Source of the DNA: Escherichia phage vB-Eco-KMB40
Reading direction: 5' to 3' (one strand)
Sequence record: OR539220.1
DNA: 64,000 nucleotides
Numbering within the stretch: position 1 is the stretch's first letter; every line of letters starts with the position of its first letter. Of this stretch, positions 5,991-39,180 are shown piece after piece. Position numbers and translations under genes: made by a program. A model generated the notes under the pieces. The model worked only from the letters and a program-made list of their open reading frames with translations. It was not told the origin of the DNA and ran no database searches.

Positions 5991-6009
5991 AAAAAGGGCC
6001 GAAGCCCTT
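5991..6009 (-). terminator. intrinsic terminator (AGGGC-TTCG-GCCCT hairpin plus T-run on minus strand)
   Basis: Perfect GC hairpin followed by TTTTT on the transcribed strand, just 3' of ORF 6008..6208. Confidence 0.55.
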
Positions 6010-6208
6010 AGCTAAACTTTTTGGCACCCTTCCAGCCTTCGTACATCATTGCGACTGACAATGACAAAGCTCCTTCACATGCTGCATACTTATTATTCCA
6101 GAACCAATTTAGAAAAACTTCATCCTCAATACCATTGTGTTTCATGTTCTGGAAAAATTTGGCGCGTTCTTCAGCAATTCGCTGTGATAATTTAGATTCA
6201 GGATTCAT
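6008..6208 (-). CDS. hypothetical small protein (66 aa)
   Basis: ORF track. Confidence 0.4.
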   Translation of the reverse strand: MNPESKLSQRIAEERAKFFQNMKHNGIEDEVFLNWFWNNKYAACEGALSLSVAMMYEGWKGAKKFS

Positions 6209-6425
6209 TTAAATTTTTCCAGTTACCGTTTTCATCAATAAATTTAATCCAGTCATTTACTGACCACTTGGTCGTATCGCCTTTTGGAGTAACATTTAAA
6301 GTGTATAACCCTTGTTTAAAAAGCATTCGTTTGATATTCATATTTTCCTCAGCTGTAACGATAACACTCGTTTGATTTACGTTTAGCAACTCGTTGAGAA
6401 ATATTATAATCAAAATCATCATCAA
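6198..6425 (-). CDS. hypothetical small protein (true start possibly internal ATG near 6344)
   Basis: ORF track; N-terminal part overlaps upstream ORF. Confidence 0.3.
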   Translation of the reverse strand: MMMILIIIFLNELLNVNQTSVIVTAEENMNIKRMLFKQGLYTLNVTPKGDTTKWSVNDWIKFIDENGNWKNLNES

Positions 6426-6687
6426 TGTAAACAGATTTTTTCAACTTTCTTACTTCGCCGCGTAATTGACGATTTAACTCATCTTTAACTTCTGAATCAA
6501 TACCTTTCATTCTACGCCATTTATCTGAGCGAAAAATGTTTTCAACCATATCTTTATGACTTACACCATCAGGAGCTTTACGCTTTCCGAAATAGTCATA
6601 ATCACGCACTTTTAAGTCTTTACGACGATACGTTTTACCCATGGAGTTTAATTTCCTTAGCAACTGAACTAAATACAGCACGATCAC
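6349..6687 (-). CDS. hypothetical basic protein (true start possibly near 6642)
   Basis: ORF track; Lys/Arg-rich. Confidence 0.35.
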   Translation of the reverse strand: MIVLYLVQLLRKLNSMGKTYRRKDLKVRDYDYFGKRKAPDGVSHKDMVENIFRSDKWRRMKGIDSEVKDELNRQLRGEVRKLKKSVYIDDDFDYNISQRVAKRKSNECYRYS

Positions 6688-28220: not shown

Positions 28221-28547
28221 TCAATTAGAAAATAAATTTATCCAAGATTGTTCTTTAATTAAAAATGGCTCAGAATCATATGCCATTAAACTTTGGGTGA
28301 TTAGTCCTTTAAAAGGTCCATCAATAAATTCCATGGTAAAATATGGAATTTTATTCATTAACTGTGCGTTAGGAGCAGTGCACAAAACTCTGCATCCTTT
28401 GAATACGCCTTTTTGTAATTTGTATTGCTTGGGATAAAATTCGCTTAAAATGTTGTTATTTGCCAAAATTTCAAAATGATTTACCAATTTATTTTTAATA
28501 GTTTTTGGCGAAAAATAGAGATATTCGAAAAGCTGTGTGTCTGTCAT
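28221..28547 (-). CDS. hypothetical protein (108 aa from internal ATG)
   Basis: ORF track trimmed to remove overlap. Confidence 0.35.
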
Positions 28548-29137
28548 TATTGCATTCCGATTACGAAAAACTGTGGACGAGTAATACCACCAATGCAACA
28601 TTTACTATTACAGCAGTAGTGTACAGTGTCAATATGGACGCTATAAATCTTATCCATATCAGGAGATTTGACAGGCTCATCAATTATATACAAAATTCGC
28701 GAAAGCGATAAACCTCTGAACTTGCTTCCTTTATTACCAATAAAACTGCGTACAGAATCAGTAAATAAACGAAAACGTATATCATCATTAGAATAACGCG
28801 AAAATTCCTTTTTAATGTTATTTGCAGAAATTTTAGCGTAAGCTGAAGTATTAGAAAGAACAATAACTGTTCCGCCATCATACAGCCAATTAGCAGCAAA
28901 GTTAGTCACAGCAATTGATTTACCGGATTGACGTCCACCATCTATACGAAGTGTGCAGTACTGTTTGAGCACATCTTCCATTGGTGGAAGATAATCATTC
29001 TTACAAAGTTCTTCTACTCTAGCATCAGAATGGTGTGTAAAAGCATTCATCAGGGATAGATAAGGTCCGGTTAAAAATGTTCTCATGTTATTTCTCTTAA
29101 GGTTTTTGGGCCATTCCGTGGCGCATGAATTGTCCAT
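28547..29137 (-). CDS. hypothetical protein with possible P-loop (GGRQSGKS); start uncertain
   Basis: Walker-A-like motif; 5' end lies in GC-rich intergenic stretch. Confidence 0.35.
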   Translation of the reverse strand: MDNSCATEWPKNLKRNNMRTFLTGPYLSLMNAFTHHSDARVEELCKNDYLPPMEDVLKQYCTLRIDGGRQSGKSIAVTNFAANWLYDGGTVIVLSNTSAYAKISANNIKKEFSRYSNDDIRFRLFTDSVRSFIGNKGSKFRGLSLSRILYIIDEPVKSPDMDKIYSVHIDTVHYCCNSKCCIGGITRPQFFVIGMQ

Positions 29138-29230
29138 TTCTGTATTTACCCATTACCGCACTCAGGCTCGACCTTATTACAGGTTGGCGGGAATCCCTCA
29201 TAGAATCATGAGGTCCAGGCTGTTCCCATA

Positions 29231-29704
29231 TTATTTGAACGATTTAACGTACTGAATAGAACCTTTACTATTTACAAAGGCAATTTTACCATTTTTATTA
29301 TACATGGTAGCAGTACGTTGATAACCATAAGTTTGTTTACCAGATTGATAACCAACTAATGCGAAATTATCTTCGCCCATTTTATTCTGTTTAGCGCGAA
29401 TGCGTTCATGACCATGTGCCATAAGAACCTTAGCATCACCGGTTGCAATGGATCGACGAGTTTTTTCATCTTCAACTGTATTAACAAAGTCGTCAAATGA
29501 ATCAAATTTAGCATGTGATTTATTATACAGTTTTCCATCTACTGCATAATTATATCCCTGTACATCCATCTCAACTTCTGTACCATCATCCAATACAGCA
29601 GTGATTTTTTGACCTTTTTTAAATTTCAAAAGATCAGTAAAAGATTCAGCAATAATTTGAGAATTAATAGCTGCTTCAGTGATAAATTCTTGATATGTTT
29701 TCAT
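29231..29704 (-). CDS. internal-protein-like head protein with capsid-targeting N-terminus (157 aa)
   Basis: N-terminus MKTYQEFITE matches T4 IP capsid-targeting consensus MKTYQEFIAE; basic mature part. Confidence 0.6.
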   Translation of the reverse strand: MKTYQEFITEAAINSQIIAESFTDLLKFKKGQKITAVLDDGTEVEMDVQGYNYAVDGKLYNKSHAKFDSFDDFVNTVEDEKTRRSIATGDAKVLMAHGHERIRAKQNKMGEDNFALVGYQSGKQTYGYQRTATMYNKNGKIAFVNSKGSIQYVKSFK

Positions 29705-29713
29705 ATGTTTCCT

Positions 29714-30130
29714 TTAAATGTAAATATTTTTACCGTAATACTTATACCAATGTGGTTTCATTAAAATTTTTTCATCAAGTCGTTGTTGACTCAATTTAAT
29801 AGCTGATTTGCATGGATTATAATCATTTTTCCATTCTACTGGAATATCGCTGATGTCAGGAACTTCAGTATCTTTTATACTGAACCCTCGTTTTAAGCAT
29901 TCCGTTATAATGTCTAATTGACGCTTTCGCAAAAATTCTAACTTATCGTAAAAGAACGTAACATGACCAGAACCTAAAATAAACTCGGAAGATATTTTAA
30001 AATCTTTAACGCGCTTACCGTTTGCCACATGCTTACGAACTATACCAAAAACACGTGGCAATTCACGATATTCTGCAATTAAATGCTGATCAGTAAGTTC
30101 AGATACTAAAGTCAAATTAATACGAGTCAT
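29714..30130 (-). CDS. denV: endonuclease V (pyrimidine-dimer DNA glycosylase)
   Basis: 138 aa; N-terminus [12 protein letters not shown]...[11 protein letters not shown] as T4 endo V. Confidence 0.92.
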
Positions 30131-30154
30131 TTTATCCCTCCAAGTAACTGTGAA

Positions 30155-30185
30155 TATACTATCACAATTCTAGGAGAAAGTAAAC
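30155..30185 (-). promoter_or_regulatory. T4-type early promoter (-35 GTTTACT, -10 TAGTAT)
   Basis: Upstream of denV with GGAGGG SD. Confidence 0.55.
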
Positions 30186-30189
30186 AACT

Positions 30190-30720
<531 letters not shown>

Positions 30721-35942: not shown

Positions 35943-36018
35943 TGGTCGAGGCAGTAGGGATCGAACCTACGACCCAGGACTTAGAAGGTCCTTGCTCTTC
36001 CTTCTGAGCTATGCCCCG
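35943..36018 (-). tRNA. tRNA-Arg (anticodon UCU)
   Basis: Manual fold: 7-bp acceptor, D arm GCTC/GAGC, anticodon loop CTTCTAA, T loop TTCGATC, CCA encoded. Confidence 0.85.
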
Positions 36019-36022
36019 TAAT

Positions 36023-36098
36023 TGGGGTGACCGATGGGAGTCGAACCCATGACTACGAGAATCACAATCTCGAGTTCTACCAACTGAACTACGGCCAC
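36023..36098 (-). tRNA. tRNA-His (anticodon GUG)
   Basis: Manual fold: canonical arms, anticodon loop TTGTGAT, discriminator C, CCA encoded. Confidence 0.8.
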
Positions 36099-36212
36099 AT
36101 TAATACCTACTCCAACAATCAAGATGTCTTCACACGAAATTAAGAGAAGAGTGATCAGTTCAACCCCTATAATCGCGTCAAGTAGATATTAATGTGACAG
36201 TTGTCACAAATT

Positions 36213-36287
36213 TGGCGGACGTGATAGGATTCGAACCTATAACCAATCGCTTAACAGGCGATCGCTCTGCCATTGAGCTACACATCC
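36213..36287 (-). tRNA. tRNA-Asn (anticodon GUU)
   Basis: Manual fold: D arm GCTC/GAGC, anticodon loop CTGTTAA, T loop TTCGAAT, CCA encoded. Confidence 0.8.
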
Positions 36288-36291
36288 AAAT

Positions 36292-36378
36292 TGGTGGGGA
36301 GTGATGGAGTCGAACCACCCGAGTCGCAATGACAATGAATTTACAGTCCACACCGCTACCTCTACGGGATAACTCCCC
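36292..36378 (-). tRNA. probable tRNA-Tyr (anticodon GUA), long variable arm
   Basis: Canonical acceptor, anticodon arm (loop CTGTAAA) and T arm; 15-nt variable arm; D arm non-canonical (4 nt between acceptor and D stem). Confidence 0.6.
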
Positions 36379-36390
36379 TAATTCATAATT

Positions 36391-36465
36391 TGGTGGCCCT
36401 GGGTGGAATTGAACCACCATCTGGCGATTATGAGTCGCTTGCTTGAACCTTCCAGCTACAGGGCC
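36391..36465 (-). tRNA. tRNA with CAU anticodon (Met, or Ile if C34 is modified as in T4 tRNA-Ile)
   Basis: Manual fold: anticodon loop CTCATAA, T stem GGTGG/CCACC, CCA encoded. Confidence 0.75.
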
Positions 36466-36466
36466 T

Positions 36467-36542
36467 TGGTGCTGATTGACGGAATCGAACCGCCGACATC
36501 CTCATTACAAGTGAGGTGCTCTACCTACTGAGCTAAATCAGC
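36467..36542 (-). tRNA. tRNA-Thr (anticodon UGU)
   Basis: Manual fold: canonical cloverleaf, anticodon loop CTTGTAA, CCA encoded. Confidence 0.85.
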
Positions 36543-36547
36543 AAAAC

Positions 36548-36637
36548 TGGCGGAGGCGATAGGATTTGAACCTATGAGTCGCCGGAGCGACTGCCGGTTT
36601 TCAAGACCGGTGCATTAAACCACTCTGCCACGCCTCC
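36548..36637 (-). tRNA. tRNA-Ser (anticodon UGA), long variable arm
   Basis: Manual fold: anticodon stem CCGGT/ACCGG, loop CTTGAAA, 18-nt variable arm, CCA encoded. Confidence 0.85.
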
Positions 36638-36639
36638 AG

Positions 36640-36713
36640 TCTCCGCGGCAGGATTTGAACCTACGACATTCTGCTCCCAAAGCAGACGCTCTACCAAACT
36701 GAGCTACACGGAG
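36640..36713 (-). tRNA. tRNA-Pro (anticodon UGG)
   Basis: Manual fold: anticodon loop TTTGGGA, T loop TTCAAAT; CCA not encoded. Confidence 0.85.
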
Positions 36714-36723
36714 TAAATTAAAT

Positions 36724-36797
<74 letters not shown>

Positions 36798-36802
36798 AAA
36801 TT

Positions 36803-36889
36803 TGGTGCGAGAAGTGGGACTCGAACCCACAAGGAAATCATTCCGCAGCATTTTAAGTGCTGTGCCTTTACCAATTTGACCATTCTCGC
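36803..36889 (-). tRNA. tRNA-Leu (anticodon UAA), long variable arm
   Basis: Sequence GCGAGAATGGTCAAATTGGTAAAGGCACAGCACTTAAAATGCTGCGG...GTGGGTTCGAGTCCCACTTCTCGCACCA matches T4 tRNA-Leu as recalled. Confidence 0.9.
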
Positions 36890-36890
36890 G

Positions 36891-36963
36891 CTGGGAATAA
36901 AGGACTCGAACCTTTGCATCTAGCAGTCAAAGTGCTATGCCTTACCAACTTGGCTAATTCCCA
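36891..36963 (-). tRNA. tRNA-Gln (anticodon UUG)
   Basis: Manual fold: anticodon loop CTTTGAC, T arm AAAGG-TTCGAGT-CCTTT; CCA not encoded; first tRNA of the cluster. Confidence 0.85.
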
Positions 36964-38519: not shown

Positions 38520-38747
38520 TTACGAAAAAATTGATTTATTTTCTGCTGCCCATTTTTCAATAACTGCAGCAGGACCAGTGACAACAATTTTATCACCGTA
38601 ATCTTCTGCGGCGAGCTGACCATACATATTCAATGAACGACCGAGAACTTCCCAAGGCATTTCACCCATTTTATCTTTCTCGCCAGTGTAAATAAACTCA
38701 ACTTTTACATCAGCAGTTTCAGCAATAAATTCTTGATAAGTTTTCAT
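38520..38747 (-). CDS. small internal-protein-like head protein with capsid-targeting N-terminus (75 aa)
   Basis: N-terminus MKTYQEFIAE identical to the T4 IP capsid-targeting consensus; own promoter. Confidence 0.55.
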   Translation of the reverse strand: MKTYQEFIAETADVKVEFIYTGEKDKMGEMPWEVLGRSLNMYGQLAAEDYGDKIVVTGPAAVIEKWAAENKSIFS

Positions 38748-38775
38748 TTTATTCTCCTCAGTAGTTGATAGGGTA

Positions 38776-38805
38776 ATAGTATCACAACTAAAACCCTATG
38801 TAAAC
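38776..38805 (-). promoter_or_regulatory. T4-type early promoter with 7-bp inverted repeat (ATAGGGT/ACCCTAT) spanning the -10 and spacer
   Basis: Minus strand TTTTTCACAAAGTTGTTTACA-N17-TACTAT. Confidence 0.6.
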
Positions 38806-38823: not shown

Positions 38824-39108
38824 TTACAAAAGATTTTTAGCAATAATTTTAAGCTGAGCTACTGAAATATGCTTGGCTTTAAACAAAGCAGTTTCTTCAG
38901 CAGGGGAGATAACGATTGTAGCACCATCTTTCTTAGCGGACCATCCATCACCCAGGTAAACAGTACCTTTGACTTCTTCGCCATCAACCAGGCTAATCAT
39001 CGGTTTACCTTCACGTCCTTTGTTTGCTTTAATAACTTCAGAAGTAAGGGTCGCTTCAGTCAAAGTAGAAGCGTTAGTGGTTGAAGTGAATTCTTGATAA
39101 GTTTTCAT
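38824..39108 (-). CDS. ipI: internal protein I-like head protein (94 aa)
   Basis: N-terminus MKTYQEF; 94 aa versus 95 aa T4 IPI; immediately 3' of 57B as in T4; mature part divergent. Confidence 0.6.
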   Translation of the reverse strand: MKTYQEFTSTTNASTLTEATLTSEVIKANKGREGKPMISLVDGEEVKGTVYLGDGWSAKKDGATIVISPAEETALFKAKHISVAQLKIIAKNLL

Positions 39109-39138
39109 TTTATTTTCCTAATTAATTTTGATGAGGTA

Positions 39139-39169
39139 ATAGTATCACTACCTCATCAGCATGTAAACA
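39139..39169 (-). promoter_or_regulatory. T4-type early promoter with 9-bp perfect inverted repeat (GATGAGGTA/TACCTCATC) flanking the -10
   Basis: Minus strand AAAGTTGTTTACA-spacer-TACTAT; palindrome arms overlap spacer and start region. Confidence 0.55.
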
Positions 39170-39180
39170 ACTTTGTGAAA

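Follow-up and report, generated by a model that had tools for sequence, protein, structure and literature searches.

Ip4 of Escherichia phage vB-Eco-KMB40: a T-even internal protein with a capsid-targeting signal at the e/denV locus and a possible inhibitor of host nucleases

What does a T4-like phage carry beside denV when ipII and ipIII are not found between denV and e, and is the product a new injected effector or a known member of the internal protein (IP) class? The question is raised by an open reading frame of Escherichia phage vB-Eco-KMB40 (OR539220.1), of which a stretch of 64,000 nucleotides, referred to here as the window, was analysed; the window belongs to a Tequatrovirus and is approximately 97.5% identical to phages QOTSP, teqhad and JK1. 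An earlier note, made from the letters of the window, had pointed to a 157-aa product encoded directly 3' of denV, with 60 bp between denV and e, as a capsid-targeted protein. The position was as described, with ip4, as the gene is called below, starting 9 nt past the denV stop codon; the e-denV spacer is equally short and was found to be 59 bp. The next gene upstream of e in the direction of transcription is nudE. The three genes at the centre of this analysis are:

29231–29704, minus strand: ip4 CDS, 157 aa plus stop codon, Ip4/DUF7412 internal virion protein
29714–30130, minus strand: denV (endonuclease V), Pfam Pyr_excise, PHROG 1183, a divergent allele between e and ip4
30190–30684, minus strand: e (T4-type lysozyme), Pfam Phage_lysozyme, 96.7% nucleotide identity to T4

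The identity of the product, whose N-terminus reads MKTYQEFITEAAINS in the ORF list and the translation, was addressed by profile, sequence and structural searches. It matched the Pfam family DUF7412 (PF24183) over its full length (E = 5.7e-96, residues 1–157 on profile positions 1–158) with a score of 319.4 bits against a curated cut-off of 27, and a match spanning the whole protein was likewise obtained with PHROG 3155 "internal virion protein" (E = 6e-102). A structural search of the BFVD viral models identified UniProt Q38388, "Ip4 [Enterobacteria phage K3]", with 98% identity and a TM of 0.98. Copies with 100% identity occur in phages T2, RB18, RB33 and teqskov, and the same protein name, Ip4, is given in the GenBank records of ime09 ("Ip4: internal virion protein") and JK1. 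From these matches we regard it as virtually certain that the 157-aa product is Ip4, a protein of the T-even internal-protein class. It follows that ip4 is a gene already named and very common, in a common locus layout, and not a discovery; the novelty implied by the earlier note was lost with these family names and accessions, with the identical protein in T2 and with the occurrence of the gene in 470 phage records. Matches to NCBIfam were sub-threshold noise only and were set aside, and a sequence search of the PDB gave as its best match a designed Kelch-repeat protein at a per-domain E > 700. The base composition of ip4 does not indicate a foreign origin.

Phage K3 is a T-even phage that was studied in the 1990s. 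The name Ip4 reportedly originates from Repoila et al. 1994 (EMBO J 13:4181), who are said to have described ten IP open reading frames and two polymorphic IP loci. Their work is cited for these ten reading frames and two loci both by Silas et al. (2025; PMC12373910) and in the Black review.

The start of the protein is where its likeness to the T4 internal proteins is found, and three parts of the product could be delimited, the second of them putative:

29675–29704, minus strand: capsid-targeting sequence, residues 1–10 (MKTYQEFITE), of which residues 8–10 (I-T-E) form the gp21 cleavage motif
29645–29674, minus strand: possible second propeptide segment, residues 11–20, ending in a conserved hydrophobic-X-Glu motif (I-A-E, residues 18–20)
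29234–29644, minus strand: mature globular part, residues 21–157, basic, with a confidently predicted fold

The signal of Ip4 shares nine of its ten residues with that of T4 IPII and IPIII (MKTYQEFIAE), the one substitution being alanine to threonine at position 9. This similarity is also seen in the DNA, as a stretch of 60 nt comprising the ribosome-binding region and the signal codons (window 29732–29673) is 95% identical to the start of ipII in T4 (L002, 4747–4688), and the signal-coding box is 94% identical to the start of ipIII over 47 nt; judged from these alignments, the likeness is one of homology and not of chance. The reading of the N-terminus as a T4 capsid-targeting signal was thereby borne out. 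In T4, the ten N-terminal residues of IPIII are enough for packaging; positions 4 and 7 of the signal are important for targeting and positions 8 and 10 for processing, while gp21 cuts after glutamate in the motif L/I-X-E and the propeptides of the internal proteins are 10–19 residues in length (PMC9026906). All four of these mapped positions (Y4, F7, I8 and E10) are occupied accordingly in Ip4, so that the residues for targeting and the cleavage motif are both present. Among the close homologues (61–100% identity), F7 and E10 never vary, tyrosine or phenylalanine is found at position 4 and isoleucine, leucine or methionine at position 8, and at least two of three relatives at approximately 35% identity carry the variant signal MNF(E/K)(Q/D)FLNES. 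On the strength of its residues and its coding box, what Ip4 bears is a bona fide capsid-targeting signal.

The close homologues also possess an invariant E20 and a hydrophobic residue at position 18 (alignment and motif scan). This second motif at residues 18–20 suggests a possible second cleavage, which if used would place the mature start at Ser21; the propeptide of IPI is 18 residues in length, with the mature protein of PDB 2JUB beginning at residue 19. We infer the packaging of Ip4, the positions of its cleavage and its ejection from the intact and selectively maintained signal taken together with the T4 paradigm, and we hold its membership of the internal-protein class to be almost certain.

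The layout of the locus was then compared with that of T4 and T2:

T4: e - ipIII - ipII - denV - vs.8
T2: e - ip4 - vs.8 (denV absent at this position)
Window: e - denV - ip4 - vs.8
29087–29230, minus strand: spacer following ip4, with homology to the 5' part of T4 vs.8 and a 34-aa ORF (29097–29201)

In the window ip4 lies between denV and vs.8, near e, which is one of the two polymorphic IP loci. The annotated T4 order agrees with the statement in the earlier note that ipII and ipIII lie between denV and e. Pairwise comparison showed the flanks of the window, T4 and T2 to be nearly identical (94–97% at the nucleotide level), whereas denV shares only 77.9% nucleotide identity with T4 denV over 294 nt. 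When compared to T2, the window contains an insertion of 421 bp (30140–29720) which is essentially denV, and T2 ip4 is found at the exact place of T4 ipIII, behind the same spacer and signal box. Both junctions of the ip4 cassette could be located, the left junction of its body being the box coding for the capsid-targeting signal, common to ipII and ipIII, and the right junction being exactly the stop codon. Window position 29231 aligns with the T4 position directly following denV, and from there the window (29231–28193) is 94.4% identical to T4 (L002, 3943–2900). The spacer downstream of ip4 is relatively GC-rich and was considered as a structured RNA or terminator, a candidate that was rejected (z = 0.20, no Rfam match and no terminator-like site on the minus strand); by alignment, this spacer is simply the homolog of the 5' end of T4 vs.8.

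A fourth configuration occurs in Klebsiella phage PKO111, in which ipII comes after ip4, and Ip4 and the T4 internal proteins are therefore not mutually exclusive. The statement that ip4 replaces ipII and ipIII is accordingly true of this genome but does not hold in general. Outside the signal, a BLASTP comparison of the mature region gave E = 0.46 for IPII and E = 5.2 for IPIII, with aligned identity in columns 1–11 only. A full-length match of high identity to either protein, named beforehand as the result that would count against the proposal, was thus looked for and is absent.

Three elements that may govern the expression of ip4 were identified:

29705–29732, minus strand: conserved upstream box with ribosome-binding site (AAAAATATTTACATTTAAAGGAAACAT), overlapping the 3' end of denV
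30141–30185, minus strand: early-promoter/stem-loop (PeSL-like) element in the e-denV spacer, sense GTTTACTTTCTCCTAGAATTGTGATAGTATATTCACAGTT, a putative promoter
30711–30718, minus strand: exact match to the T4 late-promoter consensus (TATAAATA), just upstream of e, from a pattern scan

The PeSL-like element, in which GTTTAC...TAGTAT overlaps a AATTGTGA/TCACAGTT hairpin, is the nearest promoter-like element upstream of ip4 and is homologous to the spacer downstream of e in T4 and T2. The PeSL consensus of PST/T4 is TTTACW-N17-TAYWAT, and such elements mediate modular shuffling in T4-type genomes (PMC4122927); from its similarity to them, the element in the window would be expected to act as a promoter. 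Similar PeSL-like elements are present ahead of both other IP genes in the window. With regard to late expression, TATAAATA is the sole exact match to the late promoter within approximately 1 kb upstream of ip4, and nearer matches at seven of the eight positions are TATAAGTA (29739–29746) and TAAAAATA (29725–29732), located 35 and 21 nt from the ATG, respectively.

Using tblastn, ip4 was found in 470 of 50,697 phage records, in 290 of them at an identity of at least 99%, with T4 IpIII being found in 261 and IpII in 198 records. By these counts, Ip4 is the commoner occupant of the e/denV locus in sequenced phages. In 449 records, 80% or more of the 5 kb surrounding ip4 is covered, which implies that hundreds of Tequatrovirus genomes have the layout e-denV-ip4-vs.8, and the annotation of JK1 lists e, denV and Ip4 in the same order as here. 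Homologs of Ip4 occur in Escherichia, Klebsiella, Salmonella and Serratia phages at 61–100% identity with 64 invariant columns, and the family is small, forming 14–16 clusters at 90% identity. When 1.84 billion representatives were searched exhaustively with an HMM, only seven proteins were returned, the new full-length relatives among them being three at approximately 35% identity, and a profile search for Ip4 homologs gained only P0016 and P0017. As far as these searches reach, the Ip4 family is confined to T4-like phages. One relative is encoded on a T4-like contig from a metagenome, where gene 1 and Acb1 (PF23474) lie a few kb upstream of it and vs lies downstream. This Acb1 is presumably T4 57B, in which case the surroundings of the relative would correspond to the other T4 IP locus.

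There are 17 positions which are invariant in all homologs, including G31, V48, G50, K58, N61, K62, N107, K108, Q120 and Y128, and two histidines, H64 and H99, vary in the distant homologs. No catalytic motif or enzyme family was detected in Ip4 using Pfam, NCBIfam and the alignment of homologs. The mature protein has a computed mass of 15.5–16.5 kDa and a pI of 9.1–9.3. AlphaFold2 modelling of the full-length protein with 13 close homologs gave a pLDDT of 50.4, with residues 1–20 below 50 and disordered; modelling of residues 21–157, with two homologs of approximately 35% identity added, gave a pLDDT of 93.8 and a pTM of 0.88. In this model the N-terminal part is rich in beta-hairpins, and three helices and a beta-sheet at the C-terminus are also predicted. 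An internal duplication of two beta-rich halves, with a YNK motif in both, was considered and proved to be unsupported (E = 0.042 over 15 residues).

A Foldseek search of the PDB with the model gave a best E of 0.36, and Ip4 itself was the sole match in BFVD, indicating that the predicted fold is without a known relative in either collection beyond Ip4's own predicted model. No structural similarity was seen with IPI* (PDB 2JUB), the only one of the injected GmrSD inhibitors with a solved structure, which was also without likeness to Ip4 in the sequence and fold searches of the PDB, and no structural resemblance to any known inhibitor was found in the PDB or BFVD. The earlier note had called the protein uncharacterised and had proposed that its structure be predicted; this has yielded a confident model of a fold with no known relative.

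What, then, might such a protein do? Our proposal builds on features observed directly, namely the identity of Ip4, its intact targeting and cleavage motif, its locus, the conservation of its family and a compact folded mature domain. The precursor would be produced from transcripts starting upstream of denV, at the early-type promoter of the e-denV spacer, and possibly also from the late promoter upstream of e. Through the sequence MKTYQEFITE it would dock to the scaffolding core within the prohead, where gp21 would cut behind Glu10 (I-T-E) and perhaps a second time behind Glu20 (I-A-E), freeing a basic protein of approximately 15.5–16.5 kDa that would be kept in the head and be ejected into the cell with the DNA. 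Once there, Ip4 would most likely be a stoichiometric inhibitor of a host nuclease attacking glucosylated hydroxymethylcytosine DNA on entry, and its target would be a type IV enzyme (GmrSD-family or similar) of a subtype still unsampled. By analogy with the rest of its class, we consider the chances to be about even that Ip4 is injected to inhibit a modification-dependent nuclease.

The analogy comes from T4, where IPI* (PDB 2JUB) inhibits GmrSD-CT596. The proteins Ip1, Ip2 and Ip3 (IPI, IPII and IPIII) are mutually non-homologous and each blocks a distinct GmrSD type IV enzyme without cross-protection, Ip2 blocking the BrxU-type GmrSD-ECOR21 and Ip3 the two-gene GmrSD-ECOR17 (Silas et al., 2025; PMC12373910). 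IPIII has been found to be required on ECOR17 and to be active in the cytoplasm without its capsid-targeting sequence (PMC9391042). An anti-defence role is the standing hypothesis of the field and has in part been tested already. Silas et al. (2025; PMC12373910) challenged five further active GmrSD systems with ten ip genes, 'ip4-10' among them, and obtained no reproducible inhibition, the 'ip4' of that screen being equated here with Ip4 through the common nomenclature rather than through its sequence. In the same study, T2, whose Ip4 is identical, was restricted by both GmrSD-ECOR21 and GmrSD-ECOR17 (PMC12373910). BrxU restricts four Durham phages in vivo, namely QOTSP, Solly, NR1 and CP (PMC13390438), and our searches of phage records showed all four to carry Ip4. 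Given the restriction of phages with Ip4 and the null screen, any anti-restriction target would have to be either an unsampled subtype or a different system. The suggestion that the product is a candidate anti-restriction effector therefore agrees with what the field supposes, while the GmrSD tests of Silas et al. and the restriction of Ip4 phages by three enzymes tell against it. Searches of the literature for 'Ip4' and 'DUF7412' in a phage context gave nothing beyond that study (PMC12373910), and the lack of virion proteomics or genetics for Ip4 among their results also counts against the proposal, as does the lack of structural resemblance to IPI* and to known inhibitors.

Identity of at least 99% in 290 records, together with the 64 invariant columns, looks less like a protein in a fast arms race and would equally fit a role intrinsic to the phage. 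The strongest alternative, which we hold to be unlikely but worth serious attention, is that Ip4 is mainly structural or morphogenetic, an abundant basic component of the core which helps the prohead to assemble or the DNA to condense and has no host target of its own. Ip4 would then stand in for IPIII in phages without it, an assembly role having been described for IPIII (PMC9026906). The high pI of the mature protein, the position of T2 ip4 at the place of T4 ipIII behind the same spacer and signal box, the high conservation of Ip4 across genera and the negative GmrSD screens are all in keeping with such a role. However, IPIII, on which it is modelled, also inhibits a GmrSD enzyme, which means that one role does not preclude the other, and the absence of Ip4 from many phages, T4 itself among them, along with its presence beside ipII in some, is the pattern of an accessory gene. 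A compact and specific fold with many invariant residues of surface type (G, K, N, Q and Y) also exceeds what would be needed for the neutralization of charge.

We are more doubtful that Ip4 is an injected effector acting against a target other than a type IV enzyme, be it another first-response defense or a host take-over target. This would account for the null result of the directed GmrSD screen and for the failure of native Ip4 to protect against three enzymes of the GmrSD family. It has a precedent in Alt, a packaged ADP-ribosyltransferase of T4 whose target is not a restriction enzyme (PMC9026906), and a fold with no known relative leaves the choice of target unrestricted. Against it, no catalytic motif or match to an enzyme family is seen and neither H64 nor H99 is conserved in distant homologs, and all three internal proteins of the class that have a known target act on GmrSD enzymes.

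It is very improbable that the signal is a relic, with the protein neither packaged nor injected. It is true that no virion proteomics or genetics of Ip4 turned up in the searchable literature and that in this genome ip4 is without an exact late promoter of its own, but the functional positions of the signal are kept throughout the family, even where identity elsewhere is 35–61%, its nucleotide box is still 95% identical to T4, and in T4 the first ten residues are by themselves enough for packaging (PMC9026906). Scarcely credible is an unrecognised, genome-specific hypervariable cassette, which the lack of relationship to IPII and IPIII outside the signal might have suggested and which is refuted by 290 near-identical genomes including T2, by the Pfam and PHROG families, by Q38388 and by a layout implied for hundreds of genomes. 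Even jointly, a relic signal and an unrecognised new cassette retain only a slim share of the probability.

The reading of Ip4 as an injected inhibitor draws its interest from the fact that internal proteins arrive with the DNA and so act before the expression of any phage gene, and from Ip4 occurring in more sequenced phages than T4 Ip2 or Ip3 and being present in the classic phage T2. We suggest tentatively, and at somewhat less than even chances, that Ip4 could inhibit a defense not yet linked to T-even phages. If so, this defense could be an unsampled subtype of modification-dependent nuclease, perhaps tuned to the gentiobiosyl-hmC DNA of the T2/T6 type, or alternatively a first-response system other than GmrSD, and finding the target of Ip4 would reveal a new inhibitor fold along with a new or newly assigned defense. 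For a search of that kind, this analysis contributes a confident model of the mature domain, whose fold has no structural relative, a conserved motif as a putative site of second cleavage, the exact points at which the cassette has recombined and a list of GmrSD enzymes which Ip4 evidently fails to block (GmrSD-ECOR21, GmrSD-ECOR17 and BrxU).

Two further proteins of the internal-protein class are encoded elsewhere in the window:

38824–39108, minus strand: IPI (Ip1), at the other IP locus, residues 19–94 matching PDB 2JUB 'Internal protein I' (E = 7.5e-43)
38520–38747, minus strand: third signal-bearing protein, 75 aa, starting MKTYQEFIAE, acidic, matching PHROG 8111 'internal virion protein' (E = 1.3e-42)

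The best identity of the 75-aa protein within the phage collection is 87.8%. The presence of Ip1 and of this third protein beside Ip4 would fit an arsenal of multiple inhibitors.

When compared with known systems, Ip4 of the window is closest to that of the K3/T2 family, with the same protein, profile, N-terminal signal and locus and with nothing of substance differing. The arrangement does differ from that of T2, in which ip4 directly follows e, whereas here a divergent denV is placed between them. The T4 proteins IPIII and IPII resemble Ip4 in nine of ten signal residues, in the L/I-X-E motif, in the locus, in the upstream box and in having a basic mature protein, but they are 193 aa (IPIII) and 100 aa (IPII) in length as opposed to the 157 aa of Ip4. 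IPI* resembles Ip4 in being small and in coming from the class that is packaged, processed and injected, to which Ip4 is assigned by its signal, and IPI is encoded by this phage too; IPI* differs in belonging to the other IP locus, in its propeptide of 18 residues and in its mature form of 76 aa. Finally, the locus recalls the shuffling of modules by PeSLs (Arbiol 2010; Comeau 2014), in that the IP genes and denV are flanked by such elements and the junctions lie at short conserved boxes. It departs from that system in that ip4 has no element of its own and would use that of denV, and in that its 5' junction is the signal-coding box and not a PeSL.

The internal proteins of the phage are not limited to Ip4, as two further genes of this kind were identified in the window, each lying downstream of its own promoter-like element:

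38520–38747, − strand: third protein with a capsid-targeting signal, 75 aa, N-terminus MKTYQEFIAETADVK..., PHROG 8111 "internal virion protein"
38824–39108, − strand: IPI gene of T4 type
38760–38800, − strand: PeSL-like (early-promoter/stem-loop) element upstream of the 75-aa protein
39130–39170, − strand: PeSL-like element upstream of IPI
30141–30185, − strand: PeSL-like element upstream of denV

Residues 19–94 of the IPI product match the mature T4 protein IPI* (PDB 2JUB, E = 7.5e-43), and the phage therefore encodes Ip1, Ip4 and the 75-aa internal protein. The latter is acidic (pI 4.6), and its allele is rarer than Ip4, given that its top match among the 50,697 phage records searched reached just 87.8% identity. 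The PeSL-like elements consist of GTTTAC ... GATACT or TAGTAT with an overlapping hairpin; the one between e and denV also matches the T4 ipIII–ipII spacer, in inverted orientation.

The e–denV–ip4 locus itself is a mosaic. Its denV allele was compared with that of T4 at the nucleotide level, and the gene following ip4, vs.8, was compared with the fused T4 form:

29714–30130, − strand: denV allele
28547–29230, − strand: vs.8 homologue, split

The two denV genes share only ~78% nucleotide identity compared with 94–97% for the flanking genes, and the 3′ part of the window allele gives no alignment at all to T4 denV. Phage T2 lacks denV at its e/ip4 site. For vs.8, a 34-aa ORF (29097–29201, −) is the counterpart of the N-terminus of the fused 219-aa T4 protein and is followed by a stop codon, with translation probably restarting at about 29086 (MRTFLTG...); the same split is annotated in T2 and in the related phage JK1. 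The vs.8 homologue (28547–29137, −) possesses a P-loop-like motif (GGRQSGKS) and weakly matches profiles of AAA proteins and of the N-terminal part of the terminase large subunit (PHROG 2, E = 1.2e-5), and is possibly an uncharacterised small NTPase.

Ip4-type genes were also found in other surroundings:

6001–6561 of the extract from metagenomic T4-like contig ERR6050427_5810: DUF7412 homologue, ~35% identity
2501–3475 of the extract from Klebsiella phage PKO111: ip4, then directly ipII

On the contig, the dNMP kinase gene (gene 1) lies, together with a gene for Acb1 (PF23474), a few kb upstream of the homologue, and vs lies downstream; we take these to be the surroundings in which T4 has its other internal-protein locus. 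The called start of this homologue overlaps the preceding gene and is thus probably placed 35 codons too far upstream.

The closest Ip4-carrying relatives of the window, phages QOTSP, Solly, NR1 and CP, have DNA with about two-thirds alpha-gentiobiosyl-hmC, like T6 (PMC13390438), and a link between Ip4 and this modification type is therefore possible.

With respect to known gene orders, PKO111 represents a fourth arrangement of the internal-protein locus, in which a gene annotated as "sulfurtransferase" precedes ip4 at the position of e in T4. The window also carries a tRNA cluster:

35946–36963, − strand: ten tRNA genes

This agrees with expectation from T4, where the tRNA region is located between e and ipI.
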